DNA of 32,000 nucleotides, from NCBI GenBank assembly GCA_964510585.1, contig CAZECW010000146.1, positions 17,841 through 49,840 of the forward strand, read 5' to 3'. Made by a program: the position numbers and the translations under genes. Under the pieces are notes generated by a model. The model worked only from the letters and a program-made list of their open reading frames with translations, was not told where the DNA came from and did not search any database. The DNA comes from an uncultured archaeon. Its GTDB lineage: Archaea; Asgardarchaeota; Jordiarchaeia; Jordiarchaeales; Jordiarchaeaceae. Below, in pieces: positions 3,645 to 21,204 of the stretch (its first letter is position 1; each line of letters opens with the position of its first letter).

Positions 3645-4565
3645 TTAGGTCTCTTTGGGCACCAATTTGGCAATTATGGGTTCCACTGGTATTCTGTGCA
3701 TTTTGAAGCCTAGTTTTTTGGGCTCCGCTCCCATAAGTAGAGCCAACAGTTGGGATAGGTGTATTACGGGAATTGGGTTTTCCAGCATTTCAACATCTAG
3801 AAGGTTTCCCTGATACTTGTCCAAAACATTAAGACAGTAGGGGCATATGACCACTATAGCCTCCGCATAGGCGTCTGACAGGCTATCGAGCTTCTTCTGA
3901 GTAACAGCGTAGGAAATGGTTTTGTGTACTGTTTGCTGTATTCCTCCAAACCCACAGCACAAAGTTTTTTCAGTGTACTCTACAGGGATTCCACCCAGTT
4001 TCCCAACCATTTCCTCTATGAATGAGGGATTTTCCACACTGTCTAATCCCTTTTTTCCATTAACATGTGAATAGTGGCAACCGTAGTGTACCGCCATTCT
4101 TAGTTCTCCGAGGCTAAAAGTTATCTTTTGTAGTATTTCATTCATTTTCTTGTAAAAGAAGTCTGCTATGTGAATAACTTCCACTTTTTCAAATTTTTTC
4201 CCAATCTTCTTGAGAATCTTGTCCGTCTGGAATTTTATCTGAGGATCCTCCATTAAGGCCTCAGCCACATAGAAGGAGGAATAGCATCCATTACAATCCG
4301 TGATAACGTAAGGCGTTTTTTCAAATATAATGCTGGAGTTTCTTCCCACGAGACAAGTGAGCACAGTATCAGCATTTAAAGAGCTAAATTCAGGGGTTCC
4401 GCAGCAGGTCTGATCATCACTCACCGCATAGTTAACACCCAACTTTTCAAGCACAAATCTGGTGGCTGACTCAATCCCGGGATAAAAATTATTTATAAAA
4501 CAACCCCTAAAATAGAAAAAGACACCATTACCAGGAATCCTTTCCAATCTTTGCACATTCACCAA
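3645..4565 (-). CDS. hdrB: Heterodisulfide reductase subunit B (CCG-domain protein)
   Basis: Two CCG domains: GC...TCCG...CNGC and HYGCH...LCCGFGG...CPYC. Confidence 0.88.
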   Translation of the reverse strand: MVNVQRLERIPGNGVFFYFRGCFINNFYPGIESATRFVLEKLGVNYAVSDDQTCCGTPEFSSLNADTVLTCLVGRNSSIIFEKTPYVITDCNGCYSSFYVAEALMEDPQIKFQTDKILKKIGKKFEKVEVIHIADFFYKKMNEILQKITFSLGELRMAVHYGCHYSHVNGKKGLDSVENPSFIEEMVGKLGGIPVEYTEKTLCCGFGGIQQTVHKTISYAVTQKKLDSLSDAYAEAIVVICPYCLNVLDKYQGNLLDVEMLENPIPVIHLSQLLALLMGAEPKKLGFKMHRIPVEPIIAKLVPKET

Positions 4566-4578
4566 TCAACAATCCCCC

Positions 4579-5184
4579 TTAATAGTTTTCTGAACACTCC
4601 CTTGCTTGCTTCACACTCTCATTCAACTTCTCCAACCCCTCTCTAAACCCTGTCTCCTTCAAAATAACTTTTAACTCCTCCATAGCCCTACCTGAAACCT
4701 CATATTTCTCAGGCAGACCCATCTCCAGCCGCATCTCAGCCAACTCCCTCTCCGCCTTTTTAGGATCCAGCCTAGCATAATCCCGGGGACTAATCGACAA
4801 CCCACTTTCCAATAGATTCCTACCCACACCACTCAAGATTTCCACCAAATCCCAACCATAGCCCCTCTCCAAAGCCATCCTCCTCAGCCGAGAAATAATG
4901 TAAGGTATCCCTATTCTCCAAGGACACTTATTCATACAGAAGAAGCATTGAAAACAGTACCAAACCTCCTTGCTGCTTAGAACCTTCTCTTCCTCACCTA
5001 GCGCCACATCATAAATAATTTTTCTAAAATTAAAACTGGAATTCCTACTAGCTACACAATCTCCAACACAGGCCCCGCAAGAGAAACAGCATTCTATTTT
5101 TTTGCTATCTAGCCCTGCTACTCTGTCGAAGAATTTCCAACTCCATTTTCCTGAGGATAATGCCGTGTTTCCGTTTGTTGTCAC
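4579..5184 (-). CDS. hdrC: Heterodisulfide reductase subunit C
   Basis: CFSCGACVGDC and CFQCFFCMNKCP [4Fe-4S] motifs. GTG start overlaps the upstream TGA stop (GTGA, 5181-5184). Confidence 0.88.
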   Translation of the reverse strand: MTTNGNTALSSGKWSWKFFDRVAGLDSKKIECCFSCGACVGDCVASRNSSFNFRKIIYDVALGEEEKVLSSKEVWYCFQCFFCMNKCPWRIGIPYIISRLRRMALERGYGWDLVEILSGVGRNLLESGLSISPRDYARLDPKKAERELAEMRLEMGLPEKYEVSGRAMEELKVILKETGFREGLEKLNESVKQARECSENY

Positions 5185-6524
5185 TGAGCTACCTCCAGTT
5201 CCTTCTTCAAACGTTCTATGACCTTTTCTGTTTTGCCCTTCTCTGTGAGCATTCTTGTGCTCTTCTCCTTAAGGAAGTCTCTGGCCTTTTTTATACGCTG
5301 AGATAGTTTTTCCCTCATCTCCTCTGTCAGCTCTGGAACCTGCAGCTCGGGGATGGTGGGTTCTTCCTCCTCTATCTTTTCAATTTTCACTATGCGTATT
5401 TTGGGCATCTTTTCGGCTTTACCCACCAGTTTCAAGAATGTTTGTTCCCACATTCTGCTCCAAGGGGTTTCATTCGGCTTTGTGTATCGAACATCCTTTC
5501 TTATGACTTCTATTATTTTTTCTGGGCAGGCATTTTGACAGGCTCCACAGAAACCACAGAAATCTTGGTTGAAGGCTATCTTGTCAAATTTCTCCTTCTC
5601 TTCCATAGTTTCAGGGATAAACCACACCTTCGAGGGGCAAATGTTTAGACAGGCTTTACAGCCCACAGGGTCGCATTTCTCTGGGTGGTGTAGGCGAATT
5701 TCTCCCTCAAAGGCCTTTGTGACCCGTATCGCGTCTCTTGGACAAGCGGCTTTACACCAACCACAGGTTAAACACTTCTCCCTATCTATTCTTATTTCCC
5801 CAGACCACTCTAAATCTTTTATTTCCCTATCAACCTCGGTTTTACAATTAACTTTGATTGCTTTGTCTGGACATATTTTTTCGCAGAGCCCACAGTAGTC
5901 GCACTCATCCTCCACCACTCTGATATCATATCCGGGAGCAGGATTATTTGGGGTTACATCTCTCCAGCTAATCTCTATAGCTTTGCAAAGCCTTTCACAG
6001 AGTCCACAGTAGGTACATTTTTCTTTGTCTATTGTAATCTCTCCCTCTATTTTACCCGGCTCCTTCCCGTAGATAACCAAGTCCTCCTTTTTGGGAACCT
6101 TAAGATCAGCAGTAATAGACTTATTGGGGCAAGCATGTTCACACAAAACGCAAGGAATACACTTCTCCTTGTCTATTTCAATGTCCTTTAGAAACTGGGG
6201 ATAGTCAGGATTTTCTTGAATGTACTGGTCATCCATTTTAAGCTTCATAGCCTTTGTTAGGCAAACCGCAGAGCACAAACCGCAGTAGGAGCACTTGTTC
6301 TGATCAACCATCACTTTGGGAGCATCTATCTCCCCCATTGCAATCTCAGGTATTGGCCCCAGCTCTATGGCATCACAGGGGCAGACCAATTTGCACAAGC
6401 CGCAACCCGAACATCTTGAAGCGTCATAGTCCAGTGTTTTCTTCAGCTTCTCAGTATTCCATTTAAAAATTAGTCTGTCGTCCTGCACATCCATTGTAAT
6501 TTCCAATTCTACACGATCACTCAA
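5181..6524 (-). CDS. Polyferredoxin with 8 [4Fe-4S] motifs, FwdF-like
   Basis: Eight CxxCxxCxxxC-type motifs (one is CDPVGCKAC). N-terminal AIELGPIPEIAMGEIDAPKV resembles FwdF. TTG start with GGAGGA SD (6531-6536, minus strand). Confidence 0.85.
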   Translation of the reverse strand: MSDRVELEITMDVQDDRLIFKWNTEKLKKTLDYDASRCSGCGLCKLVCPCDAIELGPIPEIAMGEIDAPKVMVDQNKCSYCGLCSAVCLTKAMKLKMDDQYIQENPDYPQFLKDIEIDKEKCIPCVLCEHACPNKSITADLKVPKKEDLVIYGKEPGKIEGEITIDKEKCTYCGLCERLCKAIEISWRDVTPNNPAPGYDIRVVEDECDYCGLCEKICPDKAIKVNCKTEVDREIKDLEWSGEIRIDREKCLTCGWCKAACPRDAIRVTKAFEGEIRLHHPEKCDPVGCKACLNICPSKVWFIPETMEEKEKFDKIAFNQDFCGFCGACQNACPEKIIEVIRKDVRYTKPNETPWSRMWEQTFLKLVGKAEKMPKIRIVKIEKIEEEEPTIPELQVPELTEEMREKLSQRIKKARDFLKEKSTRMLTEKGKTEKVIERLKKELEVAQ

Positions 6525-6536
6525 AATAAATCCTCC

Positions 6537-8903
6537 TTATGTGGTCTTTTCAAAAAGCTCCGCTCCAATTGTGGGTAGGCTACGCAGCTCCTCAGTGAAC
6601 TCCTTTATCACCATGGCAAACTTTTTACCCTCCGACGCTGAAGCGCTTTCCAGCCGCAGTCTTCTAGGATTAATTCCAATGGATTTAAGCATCTCACTCA
6701 GAACCTCCACTCTACGCTGGGTTTTCAGAAAACCTGTCCGGAAGTGGCAGTCCTGAGGGTAGCAGCCCATTATGAGTACTCCATCTGCGCCCTTTTCAAA
6801 AGACTCAAGTACAAACTGGGGATTCACCCTCCCGCTGCACATAACCCATATGGGACGCACATTAGTGGGATACCTTATCTTGTTAAGCCCCGCGGTATCT
6901 GCAGCCTCATAAGCACAATAATTGCACAGAAATGCTACTATAAGTGGATACTCCTTTTTATCCTTCAAGGCGGCATCTATCTGACCCAGTATCTGTGCAT
7001 CTGTAGATATGGGAATCTGTAGTGCCCCCGACGGACAAGCCGCAGCACAAGCACCACAACCCTCACAACCAGCAGCGCTTATACTCACTCCCTCTTTGTC
7101 AATGGAGATTACCCCCCTATCACAAGTCGTGGCACATATGCCACATTTGAAACACTCTTCAGGATCCAAAACTGGAACGTAGGGTTCAATTTCCACCTCT
7201 CCCTTTGAAAGCAAAACGGCAACCTTAGCCGCCACTGCCCCGGCTTGAGAAACGCTGTCTTGGATATCCTTAGGGCTCTGAGCGCACCCTGCAACGTAGA
7301 TTCCAGATATTTGGGTCTCAACCGGTCTCAGCTTGGGGTGGCGTTCAAGGATGAACCCGTCACTACTTAGGGGAACCCCAATTTTTGACAGAAGCTTCTC
7401 CTGATCCTTTGGAGGCGATAAGCCCACGGAGAGAACCACAAGATCTGCTTCCACCTCCACAGGCCGCCCCATCAATGTGTCTTCTGCCCTCACTATGAGA
7501 TTCTTACTTTTTGGGTTCTCTATTATTTTGCTAACCCTTCCTCTAATGAATCGAATCCGATACTCACTTATAGCATCATTGTAAGCCTCCTCGAATCCCT
7601 TACCAAAAGTCCTGATATCTTGATAAAAGACGTATACCTCGGAATCAGGAATGTGATCCTTTACTTCTTTGGCTTCCTTCACCGCGTAGGTACAACACAC
7701 CCGAGAGCAGTAAGGTTTACCGATACTCTCATCCCTAGAACCCACACACTGAACAAAAACAACCCTTTTGGGAGGCACGCCGTCTGAGGGTCTAACAACG
7801 GCTCCCATGGTGGGTCCTGAGGCGCAAAACATCCTCTCCAGTTCTAGACTGGTGACCACATTATCGAACCTTCCATATCCATAATTGTCCTTAACTGTGG
7901 GGTCAAAGGTGTCAAAGCCAGTAGCGAGTATTATCGCTCCAAAATTGTTCTCAATTATCTCCTCCTTCTGGTTCAGATCTACTGCTTCCCGATTACAAAC
8001 TCCTTCACAGCTTCGGCAACCAATGCAATGCTCCGGATCAATGGTGTAAACTGTTGGGGTAGCCTGAGGGAAGGGCATATATACAGCTTTTCTCATTCCC
8101 AGTCCACAGTCAAACTCGTTGGGAACCTCAATTGGGCAGTAGTCGGCGCAGATGCCACAACCCGTGCATTCCTCCTCCTTTATGTATCTTGGCTTCTTCC
8201 TTATTTTCACCTTGAAGTTGCCTATCCAGCCTGATACGCTTTCTACTTCGGCGTAAGTTATTAACTTGATTTTGGGGTGTCTGTTGGCTTCCACCATTAG
8301 GGGTGCCAGTATACATATGCTGCAGTCGTGGTAGGGAAAGACCTTGTCCAACTGGGCCATATGGCCTCCAATACTGGGATTTTTTTCAACCAGGTATACT
8401 TCATATCCCATGTCCGCGAGGTTTAGAGAGGCGGTTATTCCTGTAACTCCTCCCCCTATGACCAGAACTCTCCTCTCCACGGGTACGGTGTGTATGGGTT
8501 GGGGTTGCATTAGTCGCGCCCGCTCAATAGCCATTTTTATGAGGTCTTCTGCCTTTTTCGTGGCTCTTATGTTGTCTCCTCTATGAACCCAAGAGCACTG
8601 TTCCCTTATGTTGGCTATGACTAACAGATACTTGTTGAGACCAGCTTCCTCTACGGCTTCACGGAATAGTTTTTCGTGAAGTTTGGGTGTGCAGGACGCC
8701 ACAACTACCCTTTCCAGTTTTTCTTCCCTAATTTTATCAATAATTAGTTTAAGGCCGGGGTCAGAACACATGTAGGTATAATCTTCAACATGAACGTTTG
8801 ACAATTTTTTGAGAGATTCAACGAGACTGGGCACATCAACTACACCAGCAATGTTTGAGCCACAGTGACATATGAAAACTCCAACCCGGGGAACTTCAAC
8901 CAT
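6537..8903 (-). CDS. hdrA: Heterodisulfide reductase subunit A fused to a C-terminal MvhD domain
   Basis: RVGVFICHCG, REQCSWVH, GGGVTG FAD motif, inserted ferredoxin, VQCVGSRD...CSRVCC. C-terminal MvhD motifs: FLCNYCAY, VMCSGRVNP, GADGVLIMGC...DCHF. Confidence 0.95.
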   Translation of the reverse strand: MVEVPRVGVFICHCGSNIAGVVDVPSLVESLKKLSNVHVEDYTYMCSDPGLKLIIDKIREEKLERVVVASCTPKLHEKLFREAVEEAGLNKYLLVIANIREQCSWVHRGDNIRATKKAEDLIKMAIERARLMQPQPIHTVPVERRVLVIGGGVTGITASLNLADMGYEVYLVEKNPSIGGHMAQLDKVFPYHDCSICILAPLMVEANRHPKIKLITYAEVESVSGWIGNFKVKIRKKPRYIKEEECTGCGICADYCPIEVPNEFDCGLGMRKAVYMPFPQATPTVYTIDPEHCIGCRSCEGVCNREAVDLNQKEEIIENNFGAIILATGFDTFDPTVKDNYGYGRFDNVVTSLELERMFCASGPTMGAVVRPSDGVPPKRVVFVQCVGSRDESIGKPYCSRVCCTYAVKEAKEVKDHIPDSEVYVFYQDIRTFGKGFEEAYNDAISEYRIRFIRGRVSKIIENPKSKNLIVRAEDTLMGRPVEVEADLVVLSVGLSPPKDQEKLLSKIGVPLSSDGFILERHPKLRPVETQISGIYVAGCAQSPKDIQDSVSQAGAVAAKVAVLLSKGEVEIEPYVPVLDPEECFKCGICATTCDRGVISIDKEGVSISAAGCEGCGACAAACPSGALQIPISTDAQILGQIDAALKDKKEYPLIVAFLCNYCAYEAADTAGLNKIRYPTNVRPIWVMCSGRVNPQFVLESFEKGADGVLIMGCYPQDCHFRTGFLKTQRRVEVLSEMLKSIGINPRRLRLESASASEGKKFAMVIKEFTEELRSLPTIGAELFEKTT

Positions 8904-8995
8904 TACTCTTTACACCTTCTCATATTGAGGGAACAGTGCCCAGAAAAAATAAGCCCGCAAACCCAACATTCTTCCAAGGAACGGTGACTCATCAC

Positions 8996-9010
8996 ATTTA
9001 TAAATTTTCC
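8996..9010 (-). promoter_or_regulatory. Putative BRE + TATA promoter of the hdr operon
   Basis: Minus strand reads GGAAAA-TTTATAAAT, about 95 nt upstream of the hdrA ATG. Confidence 0.55.
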
Positions 9011-9200
9011 ACCAAAATTATCCGCCCAATAAAACTTCAACGGGCAAAAACCCAGAATGTTACATTAGCCAAGATTTAAAGTATGCAGACTGATTCAAAA
9101 AATATTTTTATTACTAAAATGTGGGAAGAGAAATTCACGTGTTCCAAGTTATTATTAGCTGCGTTCAGAAATTGCAAATTTTGGGGGTTACTTTTAATTC

Positions 9201-9632
9201 TTATTCCTTGATTTTTCTCAGCACTAAACAGTTCTCTATATCTATTATTCCTTTTATGCCTCTAACCTTTTCTATGAAATCGTTGAGTTCAGAGAGACTG
9301 TTGACATTAACTTTCATGATTAAGCCGCATCCCCTCGTCAAAAGGTGTGCTTCCTCCACTTCTTTAAATTCGGCAAGCCTATCCACTATTTCGTTCAATC
9401 TGTGTGTCGCTGGTTGCACCGTCACAATTGAGGTTATCCTATTCTCAAATGGTTCCGGGTTCAGTACCACTGTAAACTTTTTAATTATGCCCTTATCAAC
9501 CAATCTTTGAATCCTTTTTCTGACGGTGGCAATGCTCAGGTTAAGCTCCTCAGCAATATCTTTAATCGGTTTTCTACTATCCTCTGAGAGTATCCTAATC
9601 AGCTTTTCGTCTACATCATCCAGCTTTATCAT
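9201..9632 (-). CDS. Lrp/AsnC family transcriptional regulator
   Basis: LDDVDEKLIRILSEDSRKPIKDIAEELNLSIATVRKRIQRL HTH followed by a RAM domain. Confidence 0.93.
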   Translation of the reverse strand: MIKLDDVDEKLIRILSEDSRKPIKDIAEELNLSIATVRKRIQRLVDKGIIKKFTVVLNPEPFENRITSIVTVQPATHRLNEIVDRLAEFKEVEEAHLLTRGCGLIMKVNVNSLSELNDFIEKVRGIKGIIDIENCLVLRKIKE

Positions 9633-9893
9633 TGCCTGAAAACCTCGTTTTTAAATTTAATATAGGTAACTCAAAGTGTTTGGTTCCAGTTCCGGCATTT
9701 AGAATAAATTTAAGACTAACATTTAAGATAATATCCCCTCTGTTTTAGATTTCGGCCAGGTCTAAGGCTTATAATTGTAAATCTATATAGGCTTACCCAA
9801 ATTTTGGAGGTGCTTTTCCATAGCAATAGTATTTTTAGTAAGAAAAATTAAGCATTTTATTGCATAGTTTTGTCCAGTGTGGGGCGAGGGGTA

Positions 9894-10337
9894 CTAAATC
9901 AGAGATCTTTTTAACTCTTTGAGTGCTATACAGCTTTCAAGGGCTGTTATCGCTGGTTCTCTTTGCAATTTTTCTAGGAATGCATTTAGGCTTGATAAAT
10001 CCTTTACCACGACTTTCATGTTTACGCCACACTTGCCTGACATGGAATAAGCTTCCACGACTTCAGGCAATTCTTTAACGAGTTCTTCTACTTCTCTCTC
10101 CCTCTGGTTCTGGGGGTAGGCTACAACATAAGCTATTATTGATTTTCCGCTTCTCTCGGGGTTAAGTGCCACCGTAAACCTTTCAATAACCTTGTCTTCG
10201 ACCAATTTTTTTACTCTTTTCCTCACGGTAGACTCTGTTACCCCTAGCTCATCAGCGATTTCTCTGTATGGTCTTCTGGAATCCTTAATTAGCATTTCCA
10301 CTATTTTCTTATTAATTGTATCCAGCTCCATTACCAT
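9894..10337 (-). CDS. Lrp/AsnC family transcriptional regulator (second paralog)
   Basis: LDTINKKIVEMLIKDSRRPYREIADELGVTESTVRKRVKKL HTH + RAM domain. AGGAGG SD (10341-10346) spacing favours the ATG at 10331. Confidence 0.93.
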   Translation of the reverse strand: MVMELDTINKKIVEMLIKDSRRPYREIADELGVTESTVRKRVKKLVEDKVIERFTVALNPERSGKSIIAYVVAYPQNQREREVEELVKELPEVVEAYSMSGKCGVNMKVVVKDLSSLNAFLEKLQREPAITALESCIALKELKRSLI

Positions 10338-10396
10338 TTTCCTCCTTCTTCTCCGAAGTAATTGTTTTATATAATTTACTTAAGAGTACTTATTTC

Positions 10397-10411
10397 GGAA
10401 AATTTATAAAT
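10397..10411 (+). promoter_or_regulatory. Putative BRE + TATA promoter, identical 15-mer to the hdr promoter
   Basis: GGAAAATTTATAAAT on +, the exact reverse complement of 8996-9010. Confidence 0.5.
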
Positions 10412-10515
10412 ATTTTGGAATAAAACCATAAATATTTTACGCTAAAATTATTGAAAAATAGTAAAAAGTAATCCAAAATATGTATACCACCTAATTTTAG
10501 GGAGGAGAACAAAAT

Positions 10516-10584
10516 TTGGTAAGCAAGGAACAATTTTTGTCGAATTTTAACAATCTGAAAAGAATTTTGGGACGATATCAGTAA
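10516..10584 (+). CDS. Candidate 22-aa small protein MVSKEQFLSNFNNLKRILGRYQ
   Basis: GGAGGAG at 10501-10507, 8 nt before the TTG. Upstream BRE/TATA at 10397-10411. Amphipathic-looking helix. Below the ORF-track length cutoff. Confidence 0.35.
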   Translation: MVSKEQFLSNFNNLKRILGRYQ

Positions 10585-10910
10585 AAATATGAAGAATAAT
10601 TTACTGAAATCAACTAAAATTTACTATTTTCAATAATTGGAAGAGATGAGTTTATCTTAAATAACAAATTGTTTAATTTAGAGCCAAAAAACGGAATAAA
10701 AGAGATATATTTTTTCCGTTAAACTTGTAGAAAAGTTTATAAAACGTGTTTTTAATGTTCGGCGCTGGGAGTTTTTAGGAAAAAAATTTCCCAAAATGGG
10801 ATTATTACCGTGTTTATTTTTACTAAAATTGTTAAAATTTATAATTGAAATTCCGATTTTCAACTAATAATATATATGTTATATGGAGCAAAAAATTGGA
10901 GTGATAAGTT

Positions 10911-11489
10911 ATGAAGGTTTATGTTCCGCTAAGAGAAAAGAAAGATGCTGGTAGCATAATGTGGGTTGCAAAGGTTGGATACGAGTCAAATGTAGCCTTC
11001 TACGCCGTTTCTGATAACATGGATGAGTTATATGAATCTATTAATGAAAAGGCGCAAAATCACTATTCTGGATTAATGGATTTGGATAGGAGTTTCATTA
11101 CAGTGAGAAAGGCTCGTTTAGGCGAGGTGGACATCCCTGAGAGAATAATAGGTTCCGCCACAAGAAAAATTGAAGAGGAAGGTTATGGAAATACAAAAAT
11201 TCCTCCGAGTATTTTGGTGCCTCTGGATCTAGAGTTAGTTCCTATAGTTAATCTTGGTCTTGATGACGTAGATCCAGAATTTAGCCGATTTATTGAAGCC
11301 AGAAACATATTATCCAAAGAAGAGATAATATTCCTAAATGAATTAGATGGTGAATCAAAAATTACTCTAACTGAAAAAGATGGCCAACTAGTTTGGGAGT
11401 ATCAGAAAGATGGCGTAAATGCGGAATTTGACGCCCTCAGCGGTGTGAAGATAGTTAGCAAGTTAGTAATTAAAAGGGGTGTGATGTAA
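10911..11489 (+). CDS. Hypothetical acidic protein (192 aa), co-transcribed with the MetF-like gene
   Basis: GGAGTGA SD before the ATG. Protein-like composition. 3-nt gap to the next ORF. No recognised motif. Confidence 0.75.
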   Translation: MKVYVPLREKKDAGSIMWVAKVGYESNVAFYAVSDNMDELYESINEKAQNHYSGLMDLDRSFITVRKARLGEVDIPERIIGSATRKIEEEGYGNTKIPPSILVPLDLELVPIVNLGLDDVDPEFSRFIEARNILSKEEIIFLNELDGESKITLTEKDGQLVWEYQKDGVNAEFDALSGVKIVSKLVIKRGVM

Positions 11490-11492
11490 AGT

Positions 11493-12332
11493 ATGGCTAT
11501 GGAGAAAATGGTTCGTGGAGAATTTATGACCATAGCATTATTTGATCCCCCAGAGGGAATTGATACGTTCAAATTTTTGCGTGAAGTGGAAGCCTTCAGT
11601 GATTATGTTGATGCTATTCTGATTCCGGACTCTACCAACGAGTACATTCATATGAGTCCAATTGTTCCCTGTATGCTCCTTTCCCAGTTTAATGTGGAGC
11701 CTATAATGGAGATTGCCTATGGGAGTAGAAGTGAAAAAGCCGTTTATTCTGATGTTTTGGCGGCGCTAACAGCGGGAGTTCGCAGCATAGTTTTTGTGGC
11801 AAAAAATGCAGATGAAGCTTATGTTGAGAAAAACATTCTAGATGTCATAAAAGAAGTACGAAAAATGGTGGACGAATTAGAATTTGAGGATCCTGACTAC
11901 AATATAGATCTTAAAATCGGCCTTTCTATTAATCCGCTTACCGAGGAGCGGGTAGATTTCCGAGAAGCCAAAGAGGCGGGCGTGGACTTCATAATAGCAC
12001 TCGAAACATACGACCCCGCGCTAATATTTGACATTATTCATAGAGCTAGGGAGGCTGGCCTGTATACTATAATGAAAGTTGGAGTGTTTACTTCATTTAA
12101 TCAGGCCAAATTTGCACACAAATTTATACCAGAACTATTCGTCCCGGAAGAACTCCTTGAGAAACTGTGGGAAGCAGAAGACGAGGCCCAGGCTGGCGTC
12201 GAATTTGCGCGAGAACACATAAAAATGCTGGTAGAACTGGGCGCTGATGGAGTATGCCTCATGCCTATAAATGAACCCAAAATATACAAAGTACTCCACA
12301 ATTCTCTGAATCTTAGTATTCAAAACACTTAA
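11493..12332 (+). CDS. Divergent methylenetetrahydrofolate reductase (MetF)-like TIM-barrel protein, probably catalytically degenerate
   Basis: Aligns by eye with MetF: DAILIPDS...VEPIMEI...DVLAALTAGVRSI...EAGVDFIIALETYD...GADGVCLMP. The TCRDRN and LTGD motifs are absent. Confidence 0.7.
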   Translation: MAMEKMVRGEFMTIALFDPPEGIDTFKFLREVEAFSDYVDAILIPDSTNEYIHMSPIVPCMLLSQFNVEPIMEIAYGSRSEKAVYSDVLAALTAGVRSIVFVAKNADEAYVEKNILDVIKEVRKMVDELEFEDPDYNIDLKIGLSINPLTEERVDFREAKEAGVDFIIALETYDPALIFDIIHRAREAGLYTIMKVGVFTSFNQAKFAHKFIPELFVPEELLEKLWEAEDEAQAGVEFAREHIKMLVELGADGVCLMPINEPKIYKVLHNSLNLSIQNT

Positions 12333-13144
12333 TGAGTCCTACCCTCCCACCATTTTTTTATCAAAAATGAAAAATTAGCAATCGACTTTCCATACTTTTC
12401 CTTTTTCGCTCTTTATATTTTTTGTTCTTATCCTTGGGGCGCAGTTAACTGGGTGTCACCTTTTGTGGGTAGGTTCGTGATATGTAGAAATGCCTTGATT
12501 TTAAGATGGAATGGGGTTAATGTTGGGAAACATGCTCATTTAAAGCATAAGAATGTGAGAAAAGACAACAAAGAAGCACCACCACACGATAAGAGGCACT
12601 GTGGAAACTGCCTTATCCTTCTTAGAAGGTCAGTTAGATTGGAAAATTCAAACGAGATTGGGACTAACGTTTTCTTTCTGGGTCTTTAGTGATTCCAAAA
12701 GAACTGGGAGGATCATTTTGAGGTTAAAAAGAGGTTGTGACAAAAATTCATTTAGTTTTTTAAATTTTTGGCAACGAACTATTAAAAAGATGTAAAATCC
12801 TGTTAAGGTTCTTTAACAATTTATGTTAAAAACTGGAAAAGCCTTCTTCGTTTTAGGAATAGTTATATCTGTTTTAAGTTTAAAATGGGCATATTGTTTT
12901 CCCATTTTGAGCAATTTTTTTACCTATTTTTTGCATTTTTTTAACAAAATTTTATTTTAAAGCATTTTTTTCAGACAGTTCCTTCCTTTTTTTATTATTT
13001 TTTTCCTTTTATGAATGCTTTTTTCTTTAATATTTAGCGGTTTAATTTTCCGAATTATTATTTTTTTATTTCCTAAAACATACCATTTAATTTATAAGCG
13101 GAACATGGTCAAAATATGACGACAAAGGTTGGAGGTAGATAAAA

Positions 13145-13456
13145 ATGGTGTTGTTTGCAAAGGAAAAATTGGCTGCCGTTGAGCTAGCCGAACTTGTAAG
13201 CAGAGTAGACCCAAAAGTGAGAGAGGATCTTGTAGAGGACATAATAGACGCCGTCCTAGAAACAGAAAACGCCGACGCAATGCCCGCAGAATATGCAAGA
13301 GCCGTCCTACAACTCTGGAGACGGGGAAAACTAGAAACAAACAACGGTCTGAAAGCCCTATTCAAAGCCGCACTAAGTGTAGAACCAGAAAAAACCGCCA
13401 AAGTCTGCGAGAAACACGGATGCAAAGAACTAGCAGACTACATAAGAAGCAAATAA
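13145..13456 (+). CDS. Hypothetical all-helical protein (103 aa) upstream of mer
   Basis: GGAGGT SD at 13131-13136. Codon style matches mer. Helical pattern. Confidence 0.75.
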   Translation: MVLFAKEKLAAVELAELVSRVDPKVREDLVEDIIDAVLETENADAMPAEYARAVLQLWRRGKLETNNGLKALFKAALSVEPEKTAKVCEKHGCKELADYIRSK

Positions 13457-13516
13457 GTCCACTCTCACTTTTTAAGCAACAAAATTTAGGAAACAAAAAG
13501 TTAGGAAGAATTAGAA

Positions 13517-14512
13517 ATGGTAAAACTGGGAATTGAGCTCGTACCCCAACAAAAAATCGATAAAATTGTTGAGTACATAAAGGAGGCAGAAGCAAATAAT
13601 TTCGACTTCGCTTGGATTACCGACCATTACAATAATCGCAACACTTACGTCACCCTGGCCCTGGCTGCTGTGCAAACATCCAAAATCAAACTGGGCACCG
13701 GAGTAACAAATCCTTTCTTGGTAAACCCAGCAGTAACAGCTTCCTCGATTGCATCAATTCACGAAGTTTCGAATGGTAGGGCAATACTGGGCATAGGTGC
13801 GGGGGATGCTACTACCCTCAAGCAATTGGGAGTCGAATGGAGCAAACCCTTAACAGCGGTGCAAGAAACCATAATGATTGCCAAAAAGTTATGGGCGGGA
13901 GAAACAGTCAAATTTGAGGGAGAAGTCTTTAAAATAAAAAGCGCAAGGCTAAACTTCAAAAATAAGTTCGGGCCAATTCCAGTATACGTTGGCGCCCAAG
14001 GACCCAAAATGCTGGAACTTGCAGCAACCTTAGGAGACGGCGCACTAATAAATGCTTCCCACCCCATAGATTTGGAACCCGCAACGGCCAAACTAAAGGA
14101 AACACTGAGTCAGAGGGCCAACTCCCAAGAATTCGATATTGCGGCCTACACAAGCTTTTCATTAGCAGATACAGAACAGGAAGCACGAAAACTTGCAGCA
14201 CCTGTAGTCACATTCATTGTGGCTGCTACCCCAGCAATCGTCCTTGAAAGACACGAAATTCCGGAAGCAGATGTAAACAAATTAAGGGAACTCCTTGGAA
14301 AAGGAAAAATCACAGAAGCATTCGCCGCAGTAACCGACGAAATGATAGATGCCTTCTCAATCTGCGGAACAAAAGAGACGGTCACAGAAAAAATGATTGA
14401 CCTCAAAGAAATCGGAGTATCACAAATCGTAATCGGCTCCCCCATCGCAGACGACAAAAATAAAGCCATAAAAACAATAGGAAATGAAATCTTACCCCTA
14501 CTAAAAGAATAA
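13517..14512 (+). CDS. mer: F420-dependent methylenetetrahydromethanopterin reductase
   Basis: GIELVP, WITDHYNNRN, LGTGVTNPF, GAQGPKML and INASHP motifs of Mer within the luciferase-like superfamily. Confidence 0.9.
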   Translation: MVKLGIELVPQQKIDKIVEYIKEAEANNFDFAWITDHYNNRNTYVTLALAAVQTSKIKLGTGVTNPFLVNPAVTASSIASIHEVSNGRAILGIGAGDATTLKQLGVEWSKPLTAVQETIMIAKKLWAGETVKFEGEVFKIKSARLNFKNKFGPIPVYVGAQGPKMLELAATLGDGALINASHPIDLEPATAKLKETLSQRANSQEFDIAAYTSFSLADTEQEARKLAAPVVTFIVAATPAIVLERHEIPEADVNKLRELLGKGKITEAFAAVTDEMIDAFSICGTKETVTEKMIDLKEIGVSQIVIGSPIADDKNKAIKTIGNEILPLLKE

Positions 14513-15318
14513 AAATTTTCAAAAAATAAAAAAACATCCTCATTTATTTAACATTTAAAGACTCTATTAAAAGGCAAAAGAATAGTAAATAGACTTAATT
14601 CCCCCATTTTTCCTTTTAAACAACTTCTAAGAACCACGATTCACCAAACACATATTGATAAACCATTACAAACTCATTTCTCACAGATTTTTAAAACCCT
14701 TTAACTTACTGGGAAGTTTCTTATTTTTCAATTCCCCCAGTCAGATCCCCCTTAATATGCCAGTGAAAATGCAAAAACACAAATAGGGAAATAAGAGAAA
14801 CATAATTATCCAAAAATTCTAGAACAATCTGCAAAGTGGAGCGTTATAAAATAAACTGTCACACTAAATCAAATCGAGATTGGCGGGAAAGAGCATTAAA
14901 ACAATTGGTACCATACCTTTGTAAATATTTAGCTTGTGAAAATTTTTCCAGAATTACTGCTTTTGGAAAATAAGGGCCTTTTTAACTAGCGTTGATAAGA
15001 AGGCATAGAGTTTTAATTGGAAGTTGAATTGTCAAGTTCAAATACAGGAATAAGTATATAGACTTGCTCAAGAGACGATACCTGAAAAATGAAGAGGAGC
15101 AACACCCTTGGCTGGCTATGTACAAAAAAATGCAAAATAAGGCCTACTTCAGGGCTCAGAATCCCTATTACCCTATTTTGTACACAAAAAATAAATAAGT
15201 GCTACTTTTTAACAACCAATTATTAACTTACAGTCAAAAATATATATCCCTTCATTACCGTAAACACGGGTTAGGAAAATGATTCCCACGCCCAAATTTT
15301 AGGAGGCATGAAGCAAGA

Positions 15319-15963
15319 ATGATAATTACCAAGGCAAAGTCTGACGAAGAAATCAAGGAAGTAATACAACCCTTCAAAAAACTAGTAGTGGTGGGCTGCG
15401 GAACCTGTGCAACCTTGTGCCAGACCGGCGGCGACGAACAAGTCAAAGCAATGGTTCAAAAATTGACGGACTGGGGCAAGGAAGTTACCGGCTCCATAGT
15501 TATCGAAAATCCCTGCGACCTCAGAATTGACAAGCGTGACCTGAAAAGACTTGGAGACGCCATGGCCAACGCCGACGCAGTAATTGTTATGTCATGTGGC
15601 GTCGGAGTCCAAACCATATCACAAGCCAGCGACAAAATCACACTCGCAGCTCTGGACACAGTTTTCATCGGCGAAGTGGAACGCATAGGACAATTCTACG
15701 AAATGTGCAGAGCATGCGGAGACTGCATACTAAATGAAACAGGCGGAATATGTCCCATAACAAGATGCGCAAAACACCTACTAAACGGACCATGCGGTGG
15801 AATGAACAAAGAAAAATGCGAAGTAGGCACAGACAAAGACTGCGCATGGGTACTCATATGGAAACGACTAAAAGAACAAGGTAGAGAAGAACTCTTCACC
15901 AAATTCAGAGAACCCCGAGATTACAGCATAAAAGCCGGACCAGCCGAAATCATATGGAAATAA
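15319..15963 (+). CDS. metV: Methylene-THF reductase Fe-S/Zn subunit MetV
   Basis: VGCGTCATLCQTGG, SCGVGVQ and CRACGDCILNETGGICPITRCAKHLLNGPCGG...CEV...DCAW. Directly upstream of metF. Confidence 0.88.
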   Translation: MIITKAKSDEEIKEVIQPFKKLVVVGCGTCATLCQTGGDEQVKAMVQKLTDWGKEVTGSIVIENPCDLRIDKRDLKRLGDAMANADAVIVMSCGVGVQTISQASDKITLAALDTVFIGEVERIGQFYEMCRACGDCILNETGGICPITRCAKHLLNGPCGGMNKEKCEVGTDKDCAWVLIWKRLKEQGREELFTKFREPRDYSIKAGPAEIIWK

Positions 15964-15978
15964 TGGAGGATATGAAAA

Positions 15979-16902
15979 ATGGGACCAATAACCGAAGTTT
16001 ATAGCAAACTTGGAGAAAGCCTAAAATCAGGCAAGTGGACATGGACAGGAGAAATCGAACCGGAAAAAACAACTAACCTAGAAGAAGTAATCCACACCGC
16101 CAAAATACTCGCAGGACACGTAGTAGCAGCAAACGTAACAGACAACCCACAATCATTCGGATGCATGAACAGCCTAGTCCCTTCCTACCTCATACAAAAA
16201 GAAGCCGGCCTCGAAGCCATATGGCAGGTAACCTGCAGAGACAGAAACCGCCTAGGACTCCTATCAGACATACTCGCCGCAGGCAACCTAGGAATCAAAA
16301 ACATACTAGCACTAACAGGAGATCACACCACATCAGGAGACAACCCACAATCCATGCCAGTATTCGACTTGGATTCCGCCCAACTAGTATACATGATTAA
16401 AAAAATAATGGCGGGACACGACCTAGCGGGAAACGAGATTGAAAATCCCCCAAAATTCCACATAGGAGTCGCAGGCGCACCAGGAGCAGAACCACTAGAA
16501 CCAGAAATCCTAAAAATAGAACGCAAAATAAAAGTAGGCGGCGAATTCATACAAACCCAAGTAGTCTACGACATGGAAATAGCAAAAAGATTCCTAGACG
16601 CAGTCAAACATCTAAAAGTACCCACACTAATAGGCATCTGTCCACTAAAATCCTATAAGATGGCCAAATGGATGGACGAATTCTGCCCAGGAATCTTCGT
16701 CCCACCAGAAATACTAGAAGACCTAAAGAAAATACAAGACGCCCCAAAAGAAGAACGACGCCAAAAAACCGACGAATGGAACCTAAACTTCTTCGAAGGC
16801 TGGCTAAAAGAACTCAAGAAAACAACCAGCGCAGCAGGATGCCACATTATGGCTGTAGGATTTGAGTACATTGTCGCTGACATTGTCAAGCTAATAAAGT
16901 AA
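15979..16902 (+). CDS. metF: 5,10-methylenetetrahydrofolate reductase catalytic subunit
   Basis: TGEIEP (conserved Glu), NVTDNPQ, QVTCRDRNRLGLLSD, LALTGDH, QTQVVYD. GGAGGA SD before the ATG. Confidence 0.92.
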   Translation: MGPITEVYSKLGESLKSGKWTWTGEIEPEKTTNLEEVIHTAKILAGHVVAANVTDNPQSFGCMNSLVPSYLIQKEAGLEAIWQVTCRDRNRLGLLSDILAAGNLGIKNILALTGDHTTSGDNPQSMPVFDLDSAQLVYMIKKIMAGHDLAGNEIENPPKFHIGVAGAPGAEPLEPEILKIERKIKVGGEFIQTQVVYDMEIAKRFLDAVKHLKVPTLIGICPLKSYKMAKWMDEFCPGIFVPPEILEDLKKIQDAPKEERRQKTDEWNLNFFEGWLKELKKTTSAAGCHIMAVGFEYIVADIVKLIK

Positions 16903-17045: not shown

Positions 17046-18686
17046 TTATTTTTTTATCACTCTGACGAGTTTTTGTGCGGTTCCTGTGTTGCCGTAGTTG
17101 TCTGTGAATTTTAGGGTGGCTTTGTATGTTCCTGCTTTTTGGTATGCATGGATTGTTATGGGTAGTTTTGCTGTGTTTCCGTCTCCGAAGTCCCAATTTA
17201 GGTCTAGTATGATGCTTTGGGGTGCTGTGAAGACTGCAACGTGGAATATTGCGGGGGTTCCCTCGACTACTGGGTTGGGTGTGACTGTGAATGATCCTGT
17301 GGGTGGGGTTATTCCCTGTTTTTGCGTGATTAATTGTTTTGTGTCTTTTAGTTTGCCGTCTGCTTCTTTTATTTTTTGGGTGGGTGTTTCCTGTATTTTG
17401 TCGATGAAGTGTATGTGCGCTTTGGCGCATCTTTCGAGTTGTTCGGGTGTGCATTTGTCTGGTGTGTCGTATTTTGTGTGGTACATTACGGGTTTACCTA
17501 TGACTAGGATGGAGGGAATTCCTGCTCTGATGAAAGGTCCTAGGTCACTTACGGGTAGGGATTTTGCTGAGACGTAGGCTGCCGGCAACAGGTTATATTT
17601 GAGGGTGGCTTCCATGACGAATTGTGTTAGGGTGAGGTTGTCTGAGATGAAGAGACCTCTTTTTTCGTCCAGTCCAGTTTCTACTATACCTCCATCGGCT
17701 TGATTGTACCATCCTTTGGATCCAAATCCATCAAGCATGATGAATGTTGCTATCTTGTTGAGCAGATCTTTGTGCATTTGTACAAAGTTGTTGACTCCAA
17801 GGAAGGCTGCTTCGTGGCCTGTCCAGCCGACGAACATCATTGTTTTTTCCCTCTTTTTTAGGGGGACTTGGGCGTAGTGTTTGGCTAGGGCTATTAGTCC
17901 GGCGTTGGCTCCTGCGTTATCAACTGCGCCTGTGAAGGTGCTGTCGGTGTGGGTTCCAATTAGGATGATGTCGTCGCTCCTTCCCGGTAGGGTTCCTACT
18001 ATGATGTTGCTGCTTGCTTTTTCGGTCTTGACTTCCTCGACGAGTTTTACTGTGAGTTTACCTTGGCTTCTGGTGCATAGTGTTTTTAGATAGTTGCCAT
18101 CATCATTGTTTACTGATAGGGCGGGTAACCTGCTCTCCCATCCCTCTATCCCCTCGCCCAAAAATATGTAGGATATGGCGTCGAGGGGGGATCCGTTGAT
18201 GATCACTGCGCCTAGGGCGCCTTTTTCTTTTGCCAGTTTCAGTGAGCCGAATACTGTAAAGGTGGGGTGGAAGTTTAGTATCATTTTGCTGTCTATTAGT
18301 ACTATTTTGTCTTTGACATCTGTTGCTTGGAAATCTGCGGGTGTTCCATAGCCCACGTAGACCATCTGGGCGGTTATTCCTTCAGGGTTTGTAGAGCCGC
18401 TGAAGTAGACGGGGAATGTTTCAAGGGTTTGGTCGGAGGGGATTCCAGTTGTTTCTTCGGCTATAATTTTTAGTTCGTGTCTATCTGACCACCAGCGTGT
18501 GAAGCTGAATGGTTTAAGGTCAACCTGTGGTAGTCCTGCTTCCTTTAATTTTTGGTAGATGTATTTTTCGGCCTTTTCGGCGGGTGGGGTTCCTGCTATG
18601 CGGTAGCCGAAATCGCATAAATCCTTCATGGTTTGGTATAATTCTTGGCCGGATATCTTTACAGTGCTGGTTTTAGCCATTTTCAC
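17046..18686 (-). CDS. M28-family metallopeptidase with PA domain and C-terminal PKD domain
   Basis: PA domain: MVYVGYGTPADF...VKDKIVLI. M28 motifs: GTHTDS, DNAG, GHE, MLDG, YHTKYDT. PKD domain: WDFGDG...HAYQKAGTYKATLKFTD. Confidence 0.85.
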   Translation of the reverse strand: MKMAKTSTVKISGQELYQTMKDLCDFGYRIAGTPPAEKAEKYIYQKLKEAGLPQVDLKPFSFTRWWSDRHELKIIAEETTGIPSDQTLETFPVYFSGSTNPEGITAQMVYVGYGTPADFQATDVKDKIVLIDSKMILNFHPTFTVFGSLKLAKEKGALGAVIINGSPLDAISYIFLGEGIEGWESRLPALSVNNDDGNYLKTLCTRSQGKLTVKLVEEVKTEKASSNIIVGTLPGRSDDIILIGTHTDSTFTGAVDNAGANAGLIALAKHYAQVPLKKREKTMMFVGWTGHEAAFLGVNNFVQMHKDLLNKIATFIMLDGFGSKGWYNQADGGIVETGLDEKRGLFISDNLTLTQFVMEATLKYNLLPAAYVSAKSLPVSDLGPFIRAGIPSILVIGKPVMYHTKYDTPDKCTPEQLERCAKAHIHFIDKIQETPTQKIKEADGKLKDTKQLITQKQGITPPTGSFTVTPNPVVEGTPAIFHVAVFTAPQSIILDLNWDFGDGNTAKLPITIHAYQKAGTYKATLKFTDNYGNTGTAQKLVRVIKK

Positions 18687-18835
18687 ACCTCAATAATTGG
18701 TTTATTATTTGGTGTTTTCTTGTTAATAATTTTGTGTCTGTGGGCTGGCAATTTTTTTCAAACTGTGGAGATTATATATTGGTGGCTTCTCTAGTTAAAA
18801 GTGGAAGAAATTTAGCTTTGGAGGTATGGTTAAGT

Positions 18836-19621
18836 ATGTCCAGTTTATCCATTAGGGATGTTGGAAGGAGGCTGTCTAGGGCGGGTAGGTTGGAAACGAG
18901 GGTACTGTGTGTATATGGTTCGCGGGATATTCCTGTTGGGGCTATTCCAATGAAATCGGTTAGTCGCTGCATCGCTAGAGCAATATTTACTATGGCGGTT
19001 CGCGGAGAAGTGCCTCCCACGTATTTGGGGAATAATGCTCTTGAGGGGTGTTGCCCTGGAGGCGTATCTTGGCTTGGTTTTAGTAGTCCGTCGCCTTGGA
19101 TTAAGTATTTTGTGTCTACGGGCACAAAGGAATTCGCTGATGGAGCCGCGGAGTATTTAAAGGTTAGTCCTGAGGTTGCTGAGGAGAGCTTCAAATCTAT
19201 AGGAAAAATAACGCCCCTCGGAAAGTATACTGTGATTCAAGCTTGTGAAGACCTGGAGGAGGATCCGGGTGTTAAATCTATTGTTTGTTTTGGGACATGT
19301 GAGCAAATTAGAAATATGTGCTCGCTTGTTTACTTCAGGAGGACAGATATGTATGCGGTTTTGGCGCCCTTTGGGCCTTCTTGTGCCACCTTAGTTACTT
19401 ACCCTGCGGGTATGGGGGAAAAGGTGCCTCGCAACTCGGTGTTCATAGGGCCCTTGGACCCCACGGGAAACTCGTGGTTCCCACCTAATTATATGGCTTT
19501 GGGTATACCAGTGCAAATAGCAAGACAAATGAGCCAGGATCTGGAAGAATCGTTTATTGTAAAGAGGCCTAAAACTGCTTATCCTGATCGGAGAGAAAAA
19601 ATAGGGACTGTTGTAAAGTAA
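18836..19621 (+). CDS. DUF169-like protein
   Basis: GCCPGGVSWLG, GPSCATLV and GPLDPT motifs. GGAGGT SD at 18820-18825 supports the ATG at 18836 over the ORF-track start at 18734. Confidence 0.65.
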   Translation: MSSLSIRDVGRRLSRAGRLETRVLCVYGSRDIPVGAIPMKSVSRCIARAIFTMAVRGEVPPTYLGNNALEGCCPGGVSWLGFSSPSPWIKYFVSTGTKEFADGAAEYLKVSPEVAEESFKSIGKITPLGKYTVIQACEDLEEDPGVKSIVCFGTCEQIRNMCSLVYFRRTDMYAVLAPFGPSCATLVTYPAGMGEKVPRNSVFIGPLDPTGNSWFPPNYMALGIPVQIARQMSQDLEESFIVKRPKTAYPDRREKIGTVVK

Positions 19622-19684
19622 ATGAAGGGGGTTTGGATGGGTTGGCTGGGCTTTTGAACTACTTCTCTCTATTTTTTGTTTGAT

Positions 19685-20449
19685 TTATTGGTTTTGGTAG
19701 GGGTCTGGGGTGTTTTCGTTTGTAGGGTTTAGGAATTGTGAGAGTTTCTCTATTTTTTGGATTCCTTGTGTATAAATTGGGGATTTTATGGGTGGGGTAA
19801 TCTTGTTTTTTGTTATTTTCTTTGGGATTGACTTGTATGCGGGGTTTGGAATCCAGCGGGGACCTTTTTCCGTTTTTACTAGGTGGTAGGCCGCTCCGCA
19901 GGCGCTTTCCATTGGTCCATAGAGGGATTGGAACTTGTTTGACACCCAGTTCGCCATGACTAGTGTTTGTGGCTCCTTATTTATTGTTGTGTGCCCGTGT
20001 AGGGGAGGTGAAACCCAGAGTTCGTAGGGTTTTACCTCTGTTGCAGTGAAGACTTCTACTTTGAGGGGGTCTTTTTCACTGCTTTTTTGTGATACGTAGA
20101 TTGCTTTTCCATAGAGCACGCCATAAATTTCGGGGTAGAAATTGGGGTGATAGTGTCCAGAGGTTTTGCCGTATTCGTCTCCCAGCAGGAAATTTTTCAT
20201 TACGGTTATGTCGAACCTCAAACTATACTGGGCAATTATGGGCCTGTGTTCTGGAAGAGCTACATCTCTATACATCCAGTAGGCGATTTCCTCAGTGTCA
20301 ACTTTGAGGTCGCGGTTTCTAGCTACCTTGGTGAGGTCTCCCATAGTTCTTACGCTTGGTTGCGGCAGTTCCAATTTCTTCGAGATTAACTTATTTGTTC
20401 TCTCGTCAAGAGATATGGGAAGACCGGAAACATTCTCTAAATCTATCAT
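19685..20449 (-). CDS. pgi: Cupin-type (archaeal) glucose-6-phosphate isomerase
   Basis: RFDITV, KTSGHYHP, YPEIY, PPLHGHTTIN, MANWV and GAAYH motifs with the cupin metal ligands H, H, E, H. Confidence 0.8.
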   Translation of the reverse strand: MIDLENVSGLPISLDERTNKLISKKLELPQPSVRTMGDLTKVARNRDLKVDTEEIAYWMYRDVALPEHRPIIAQYSLRFDITVMKNFLLGDEYGKTSGHYHPNFYPEIYGVLYGKAIYVSQKSSEKDPLKVEVFTATEVKPYELWVSPPLHGHTTINKEPQTLVMANWVSNKFQSLYGPMESACGAAYHLVKTEKGPRWIPNPAYKSIPKKITKNKITPPIKSPIYTQGIQKIEKLSQFLNPTNENTPDPYQNQ

Positions 20450-20654
20450 TTTTTAATGCACCTATACACTCTTATTGTCAGAATTGATTCATTTTTTTGG
20501 TAACGGTTTTTCAGGAATTAATTCGACTCAGAAAAATTTCTAATCCCATCATGTTGTACTTTCTGCTTGATGTCCGCAGAGGTTGAATTTTAGGAATTTT
20601 CTAATGGTTTGAATAGTTTTTTTGTGGTGGGGATGTTCAGGTTTTGGGAGGGTT

Positions 20655-21059: not shown

Positions 21060-21204
21060 AAATATAACCTCCTATGGAGATTACGGTACAATTTAGGATA
21101 TTTGGGATTATTCAAATTTCTATCCCCTACATAATCTGAAAAGGATATCGGAGGAAAACTCAGGACGGGTGGGGAGGGTGTTCAGTGCTTGAAATTTTGA
21201 AATT

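Follow-up and report, generated by a model that had tools for sequence, protein, structure and literature searches.

In Methanosarcina acetivorans, the heterodisulfide reductase (Hdr) subunit HdrA2 is fused to MvhD, and its gene shares an operon with that of a polyferredoxin. HdrA2 reduces cofactor F420 with ferredoxin and, together with HdrB2C2, bifurcates electrons from F420H2 to ferredoxin and the coenzyme M-coenzyme B heterodisulfide, CoMS-SCoB (PMC5296606). Hdr subunits are also part of MetFV-HdrCBA-MvhD, the methylene-tetrahydrofolate (methylene-THF) reductase of Moorella thermoacetica and Sporomusa ovata (PMC9430772, PMC9012536), for which the published HdrA sizes are 163 kDa and 101 kDa, respectively. 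A MetVF-type methylene-THF reductase (MTHFR) that depends on reduced ferredoxin is known from Clostridium ljungdahlii and Thermoanaerobacter kivui (PMC8515935, PMC8578170; the class is treated in PMC9430772). Among archaea, the ANME-1-type MetF/MetV was proposed as a replacement of Mer, the methylene-tetrahydromethanopterin (methylene-H4MPT) reductase that depends on F420 (Chadwick et al. 2022, PMC9012536), and Methanosarcinaceae have an anabolic MetF/MetV-FolP-FolD-GlyA-PurN cluster (summarised in PMC9012536). Here we describe a locus of an uncultured Asgard archaeon of the Jordiarchaeales that carries hdrA2::mvhD, mer and metV-metF together. It occupies positions 3645-16902 of a 32,000-nucleotide (nt) stretch of contig CAZECW010000146.1 (assembly GCA_964510585.1), which we call the window.

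The reading that we favour, tentatively, is that this locus is a conserved redox island at the methylene-H4MPT/methyl-H4MPT step of the archaeal Wood-Ljungdahl pathway, made up of three separately transcribed modules. The observations behind it are the gene identities, the intact motifs, the synteny and the phyletic patterns. Genes were called from the listing of open reading frames (ORFs) and from Pfam and NCBIfam profile scans of the window proteins. The comparison set consisted of 41 Asgard genomes, i.e. the window genome and 40 related ones; metV neighbourhoods were taken from 25 of the 40 and the window proteins were then placed on them. The island consists of the following genes:

3645-4565, minus strand: hdrB, 306 amino acids (aa), two Pfam CCG domains; TIGR03288 at 225.6 bits (cut-off 345)
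4579-5184, minus strand: hdrC, 201 aa, two [4Fe-4S] motifs; Fer4_8, and TIGR03290 at 82 bits, below the cut-off
5181-6524, minus strand: FwdF-like polyferredoxin (307 bits), 447 aa, 34 cysteines, seven CxxCxxCxxxC motifs
6537-8903, minus strand: hdrA2::mvhD, 788 aa; NF040770 at 1094.6 bits (cut-off 1100), FlpD at residues 655-776 (7e-50)
9201-9632, minus strand: Lrp/AsnC regulator 1 (Pfam), kept across the genus
9894-10337, minus strand: Lrp/AsnC regulator 2 (Pfam), divergent from orf192
10911-11489, plus strand: orf192, 192 aa, no cysteine, no Pfam or NCBIfam match, translationally coupled to the MetF-like gene
11493-12332, plus strand: MetF-like gene, 279 aa, PF02219 at 34 bits, starting 3 nt after orf192
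13145-13456, plus strand: orf103, 103 aa, a small conserved ORF immediately upstream of mer
13517-14512, plus strand: mer, F420-dependent methylene-H4MPT reductase, 331 aa; TIGR03555 at 415.7 bits (cut-off 348.7), NF002619 at 442 bits
15319-15963, plus strand: metV, 214 aa, DUF5981 (Pfam, 7e-36), 12 conserved cysteines in the alignment
15979-16902, plus strand: metF, 307 aa, MTHFR (Pfam, 3e-34), of the archaeal ANME-1/Bathy/Asgard-type clade

All frames in the island are open and the intergenic gaps within units range from -4 to 60 nt. The hdr operon is on the minus strand, with gaps of 12, -4 and 13 nt (the polyferredoxin gene starts 12 nt after hdrA2 and overlaps hdrC by 4 nt), while the MetF-like gene, mer and metV-metF are on the plus strand. 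The start of hdrA2 is 6.4 kb from the start of metV, on the opposite strand and with six ORFs between, so at this locus the hdrCBA/mvhD genes are not in one transcription unit with metVF. A first-pass annotation of the window, made from the letters alone, had named the same genes, and all of them are present and intact; it was also correct in noting that the modules lie on opposite strands and that neither mvhAG nor mcr is in the window.

We infer the substrates and the electron donors, as well as the lack of a physical complex between MetVF and HdrA2, as follows. Mer would interconvert methylene-H4MPT and methyl-H4MPT with F420. HdrA2::MvhD, the polyferredoxin and HdrCB would form a flavin-based bifurcating enzyme of the HdrA2B2C2 type that couples the F420 pool to ferredoxin and a thiol/disulfide couple, the disulfide partner probably containing coenzyme M. 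In the reductive direction this module would make F420H2 from reduced ferredoxin; in the oxidative, i.e. methylotrophic, direction it would split the electrons of F420H2 between ferredoxin and the disulfide. MetVF, which is accompanied by orf192, an Lrp regulator and a MetF-like paralogue that is degenerate, would carry out this step by an iron-sulfur/flavin route independent of F420, most likely acting on H4MPT with electrons from ferredoxin or another Hdr.

The block is conserved in the order to which the host belongs. Ten relatives were available, three of which (G001, G002 and G010) are uninformative as contig ends break the block; the linkage of hdr, mer and metVF that the first-pass annotation wished to see in close relatives is kept in all seven of the others, with hdrA2::mvhD and metVF 3-7 kb apart in each. 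Within the genus the whole block is intact in two genomes (G003 and G004) and partial in a third (G005). The sister family (four informative genomes) has a compacted form, in which hdrB-hdrC-polyferredoxin-hdrA2 and mer are divergent and about 150 bp apart, and metVF follows 2.4-3.8 kb beyond mer, after UbiA and inositol-1-P synthase-like lipid genes. With the block retained in whole (G003, G004), in part (G005) or in compacted form (the four sister-family genomes), the comparison indicates that the co-location of hdr, mer and metVF is not due to chance. An apparent 32-aa insert in the mer gene of one sister-family genome (G007) proved to be a run of N.

Outside the order the gene orders differ. 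The arrangement is lrp-orf192-metV-metF-mer in a Baldr-type genome and metV-metF-orf192-metFlike-lrp-orf103-mer-metF2-metV2 in two complete genomes that are probably Atabeyarchaeia, and a Heimdall/Hod-type genome has metV-metF-hdrA-hdrC-hdrB, the hdrA with two FAD domains and MvhD, followed by two mer genes.

The Hdr module resembles the HdrA2 type. HdrA2 has one FAD domain, an N-terminal cysteine domain, C194/C197 and four ferredoxin-type motifs in the alignment, and its orthologues across the order score 1081-1100 bits with NF040770; the window protein is close to being an equivalog of the HdrA2 of the F420H2-dependent CoMS-SCoB reductase of M. acetivorans. Both CCG motifs of HdrB are intact (C22..C53C54..C91xxC94 and C163..C203C204..C241xxC244). 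As in M. acetivorans HdrA2B2C2, HdrA is fused to MvhD, the polyferredoxin gene is in the hdrA2 operon, HdrB has two CCG motifs, HdrC has two clusters, and the genome encodes CofH and ComA. Unlike in that organism, where hdrC2B2 are located elsewhere in the genome, all four genes are in one operon, which lies beside mer in a host without mcr, and HdrB and HdrC fall far short of the cut-offs of the CoB-CoM equivalogs. The gene of ComA, i.e. phosphosulfolactate synthase of coenzyme M synthesis, was found in 11 of 11 genomes of this order as compared to one of the 30 other Asgard genomes. The first-pass annotation had suggested that this Hdr serves MetVF rather than acting as a CoM-CoB reductase, and had named mcr in the genome together with a grouping of HdrB with CoM-CoB-reducing clades as signs to the contrary; the near-equivalog HdrA2, the intact CCG motifs and comA come close to the second of these, and its proposal is not supported for this Hdr.

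The host is a non-methanogenic Asgard archaeon, and the named homologues of its proteins are from Ca. Freyrarchaeum, Jordarchaeaceae and Ca. Freyarchaeum deiterrae. Its assembly is 3.78 Mb long and 96% complete, and mcrA was not found in the genome search. The genome encodes a complete H4MPT branch and F420 synthesis: contig C58 groups ftr, mch, mtd and cdhC, and cofH, comA and RFAP synthase (a marker of H4MPT) are also present. Contig C20 carries a hydrogenase of the Mvh type (VhuA/VhuG-like) together with a separate hdrACB set. FrhA gave nothing above the cut-off and fhs was not found in the genome search. In other words, the genome-wide survey that the first-pass annotation had called for confirmed ftr, mch, folD and a separate Mvh hydrogenase, and failed to find fhs. 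Papers on Freyarchaeia and Jordarchaeia report the H4MPT pathway, coenzyme M synthesis, MtrH and an expressed MTHFR (PMC11291895, PMC9723677); the present locus is not discussed in either of them.

The observations that weigh against our reading are of several kinds. HdrA2 scores slightly below its NCBIfam cut-off, and HdrB and HdrC well below theirs. In Ca. Freyarchaeum deiterrae (the complete genome, G005) a rearrangement has split the operon between hdrC and polyferredoxin and placed hdrC-hdrB 1.7 Mb away (C1 810-820 kb compared to 2.54-2.56 Mb); the displaced segment also carries guaA and a nitroreductase gene, and hdrA2 is separated from the polyferredoxin gene by inserted TPR, HEAT and PIN genes, although these two, mer and metVF have remained linked. 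The conservation of synteny in a single order may also be partly inheritance rather than selection. Some folate-type chemistry may exist, as folD lies beside purH. Finally, orf192 lies between hdrA2 and metVF in the window and its relatives adjoin Hdr genes in three other loci, and an MvhD domain beside metVF recurs in Asgard loci, a domain that the window HdrA2 also carries.

The last of these points lead to the strongest alternative, which we consider possible but rather doubtful: MetVF may dock on the window HdrA2::MvhD/HdrBC, perhaps via the polyferredoxin or orf192, and form a bifurcating methylene-pterin reductase like that of Moorella and Sporomusa. Because MvhD next to metVF recurs and HdrA2 has an MvhD domain, MetV could dock there. 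The constant distance of 3-7 kb, the operons joining metVF with MvhD-bearing proteins in other Asgard genomes and the position of orf192 relatives ahead of metV or hdrA::mvhD agree with such a complex, and S. ovata pull-downs show contacts of MetV/MetF with HdrA/MvhD (PMC9430772). The window also resembles the Moorella/Sporomusa system in that a span of 13 kb encodes the same six protein families, with MetV and MetF intact. It differs from it in that its genes are not one transcription unit, in that its HdrA is a single-domain protein of 788 aa with Cys197 and is not enlarged, in the added polyferredoxin, Mer, orf192 and MetF-like protein, and in the carrier, which is probably H4MPT. Two regulators and four other genes intervene between the two units on their different strands, and in the sister family mer is separated from metV by two unrelated lipid genes, and MetF is without the catalytic Glu, Asp and Gln.

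The type of HdrA also argues against docking, as every metVF-hdr operon examined has the double-domain type. MetVF-linked HdrAs in Asgard operons are double-domain::MvhD proteins of about 1150-1200 aa (1206 aa in the Heimdall-type genome); a second genome with such an operon has orf192-hdrA::mvhD-metV-metF, and the HdrAs of the two operons are 50% identical. In the window genome their best match is not the window HdrA2 but a protein encoded on C76, another contig (48% identical across 1000 residues), a double-domain HdrA of 1025 aa with a separate MvhD directly after it. The window-type module hdrA2::mvhD-polyferredoxin-hdrC-hdrB, on the other hand, is also present in two families of Asgard archaea for which no MetV was found: in one (f15, genome G036) it lies 9 kb from orf103-mer, and in a genome of the other (G012) it shares a contig with mch. 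From these sequence comparisons it is more likely that the HdrA2/polyferredoxin module pairs with the F420/Mer branch and the double-HdrA::MvhD with MetVF. The proposal of the first-pass annotation that HdrABC-MvhD is the redox partner of MetVF thus survives in part: metVF-Hdr operons do exist in other Asgards, but the window Hdr is not supported as the partner. A complex prediction of HdrA2 (residues 10-788, 8-row alignment) with MetV (21-row alignment) scored 0.00 against a mark of 0.32 and was used neither way.

Two further Hdr loci may be mentioned. The C76 locus (6.7-17.3 kb, L070) reads hdrC-hdrB-hdrD-like(Fer4+CCG)-hdrA(1025 aa, double)-mvhD-hdrA-frhB-like. Its second hdrA is split into frames of 131 and 448 aa and, because in-frame TGA codons are reported there, may contain selenocysteine. 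A Thor-type metVF near hdrA-hdrA-hdrC-hdrB-mvhA was considered and set aside: between the two lie genes for a response regulator and a PAS kinase as well as an MBL gene, so that this is an ordinary Mvh-Hdr cluster.

The carrier of MetVF was approached through its phyletic pattern. MetV occurs with RFAP synthase in eight of the ten MetV-containing families and with FolD in five of the ten, five genomes have MetVF and Mch without a true Mer, and six have MetVF and Mer without a FolD being found; these counts are phyletic, and the related genomes are not independent. By this pattern the window MetVF most likely acts on H4MPT, as Mer does. This archaeal MetF clade was proposed to work on H4MPT, the general idea having already been published for ANME-1 and Syntrophoarchaeum (PMC9012536), and the pattern found here fits it. 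The window MetF groups among Bathy-, Odin-, Baldr- and Thor-type sequences in homologue searches and in the tree, i.e. in the same broad clade as the ANME-1-type protein, and, as there, it is always paired with MetV and accompanied by few folate enzymes. Unlike in ANME-1, Mer is not replaced but lies 0.8 kb upstream of metV and is intact; Glu7 (motif GIE7L) occupies the catalytic position at the end of beta-1, a residue whose role has been described (PMC11094777). Since Mer is retained beside MetVF, the two enzymes must have distinct roles, be it in donors, directions or regulation. Like the MetVF of C. ljungdahlii and T. kivui, the window enzyme is a two-subunit MetV+MetF without an NADH-binding partner in the operon; unlike these, it is archaeal and accompanied by an orf192-family gene and an Lrp regulator.

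According to a less probable alternative, which we regard as unlikely, the locus is the dual-pterin node that the first-pass annotation suggested, with a folate-specific, mainly anabolic MetVF that makes methyl-H4F, Mer on the H4MPT branch, and a co-location that reflects nothing but shared regulation of C1 flux. This idea keeps a place because an AICARFT/IMPCHase gene of the purH type is only 1.1 kb away from folD; the catalytic residues of MetF are also canonical, Methanosarcina provides a precedent (PMC9012536) and work on Freyarchaeia draws a THF route (PMC11291895). As in Methanosarcinaceae, MetVF and Mer occur together in an H4MPT-using archaeon, but the window MetF belongs to another clade and its gene is clustered with mer and hdr, not with folD, purH or other folate genes. 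MetVF tracks RFAP synthase and Mch rather than FolD, and metVF-mer clusters occur in relatives in which FolD was not found, the two complete genomes included. The failure to find fhs in the genome points in the same direction, as does that of folC in any of the 41 genomes, though the latter counts for little, as the M. acetivorans control gave no folC match either.

The least favoured view, which seems improbable to us, is that the neighbourhood has no functional meaning and that three C1/redox units are adjacent by descent in an Hdr-rich order; the window genome has at least eight further HdrA paralogues, so that proximity to some Hdr is fairly likely, and both the rearrangement in G005 and the insertion of unrelated genes in the sister family were tolerated, but mer and metVF are again paired, with differing gene orders, in genomes of the Baldr, Atabey and Heimdall types, the HdrA2-module/mer pairing recurs in family f15 in a different order, and within the order this spot is always occupied by one and the same Hdr paralogue.

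The MetF proteins differ in their catalytic residues, which were scored against E28, D120 and Q183 of E. coli. The window MetF retains E25, D115 and Q194 in the alignment, while the MetF-like protein has L16, N105 and L170 at the Glu, Asp and Gln positions. Its model is an MTHFR TIM-barrel with TM 0.73-0.76 to T. thermophilus MTHFR; the MetF-like protein is thus predicted to have an MTHFR fold with a degenerate catalytic site. As a separate observation, in the MetF of the sister family (Jordarchaeales-type, genomes of about 2 Mb) Gln, Ser and Tyr replace the catalytic Glu, Asp and Gln (L019:18674-19567; orthologues in G007-G010), and the MetV partner is kept conserved despite this loss. Judged by these residues, the sister-family MetF may no longer be a methylene-pterin reductase.

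The gene orf192 is a regular member of Asgard metVF loci and represents an Asgard-only family that is new here. It has 18 matches among 1.8 billion cluster representatives, and every named member is from Asgard archaea. In the seven contexts available, a divergent Lrp gene is followed by orf192 and then by metV-metF, or by an MvhD-bearing gene and metV-metF; the divergent lrp-orf192 pair of the window is found in other Asgard metVF loci as well. The MvhD-bearing gene after orf192, present in two loci, is the double-domain hdrA::mvhD in one (L068) and a ferredoxin::MvhD gene in the other. On a Helarchaeota contig an orf192 relative lies 2.6 kb from hdrA::mvhD-hdrC-hdrB, and a further contig with a relative (P0146) has no recognised neighbours. 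The AlphaFold2 model of orf192 has a mean confidence (pLDDT) of 88 and no clear structural relative. The only PDB sequence match, a designed repeat protein, was uninformative, and the best fold matches, PepSY-like C-terminal pieces of 50-65 residues (Z 5.7), were not accepted as an identification; Atlas scores were below 0.8. The C-terminal end of the protein is PepSY-like. A 15-nt element that occurs both upstream of hdrA2 and in the spacer between lrp2 and orf192 (GGAAAATTTATAAAT in gene direction) was considered as a shared operator and rejected, as it resembles a generic BRE/TATA promoter and not a specific operator.

The other small gene, orf103, is also paired with mer in the Atabeyarchaeia-type genomes and in family f15, and gave no family matches. 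A second copy, 74% identical, is present on contig C35 of the window genome (499-789).

No RNA genes were detected in the window by Rfam and tRNA scans. The spacers 12333-12981 and 14524-15224 show no DNA-level conservation compared to G005, which suggests no hidden gene or intron there. Two hot-spring runs carry the label metatranscriptomic together with the flag "probably DNA", and their contigs include some from a relative with about 90-95% identity that span hdr, mer and metVF; none of the listed runs is recorded as RNA, and contigs cannot show transcripts. Both GC and AT skew are strong and opposite at 4001-8000 and 18001-22000 of the window, and both track the gene strand (GC skew is -0.29 across the hdr operon and +0.24 across 18-20 kb). 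Further downstream, positions 21205-22701 (minus strand) encode a 498-aa DNA topoisomerase IB of the eukaryotic type that matches Pfam Topoisom_I_N, Topoisom_I and Topo_C_assoc, each above the cut-off, and a ThiF/E1-like gene (23021-24079) adjoins it.

The carrier and the electron donor of archaeal MetF/MetV have been in question since ANME-1 genomes were found without Mer, and the answer sets the energy balance of the archaeal acetyl-CoA pathway. As this order combines Mer with a canonical MetVF, a MetF paralogue that is degenerate and a bifurcating module of the HdrA2 type, all side by side, its members offer a natural set for two-carrier assays. The comparison also separates two Hdr associations that are easily lumped together, i.e. 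HdrA2/polyferredoxin with F420/Mer and double-HdrA::MvhD with MetVF, and flags orf192 as an unstudied Asgard-specific member of metVF loci. We also considered a more far-reaching scheme, to which we give little credence, in which HdrA2::MvhD-polyferredoxin-HdrCB, MetVF and orf192 together would be an F420H2-dependent electron-bifurcating methylene-pterin reductase: HdrA2 would oxidise F420H2, one branch leading via MvhD/polyferredoxin to MetV/MetF and the other to ferredoxin. If true, this would be an energy-conserving step of the methyl branch without a counterpart in known acetogens or methanogens, in relatives of the eukaryotic ancestor.

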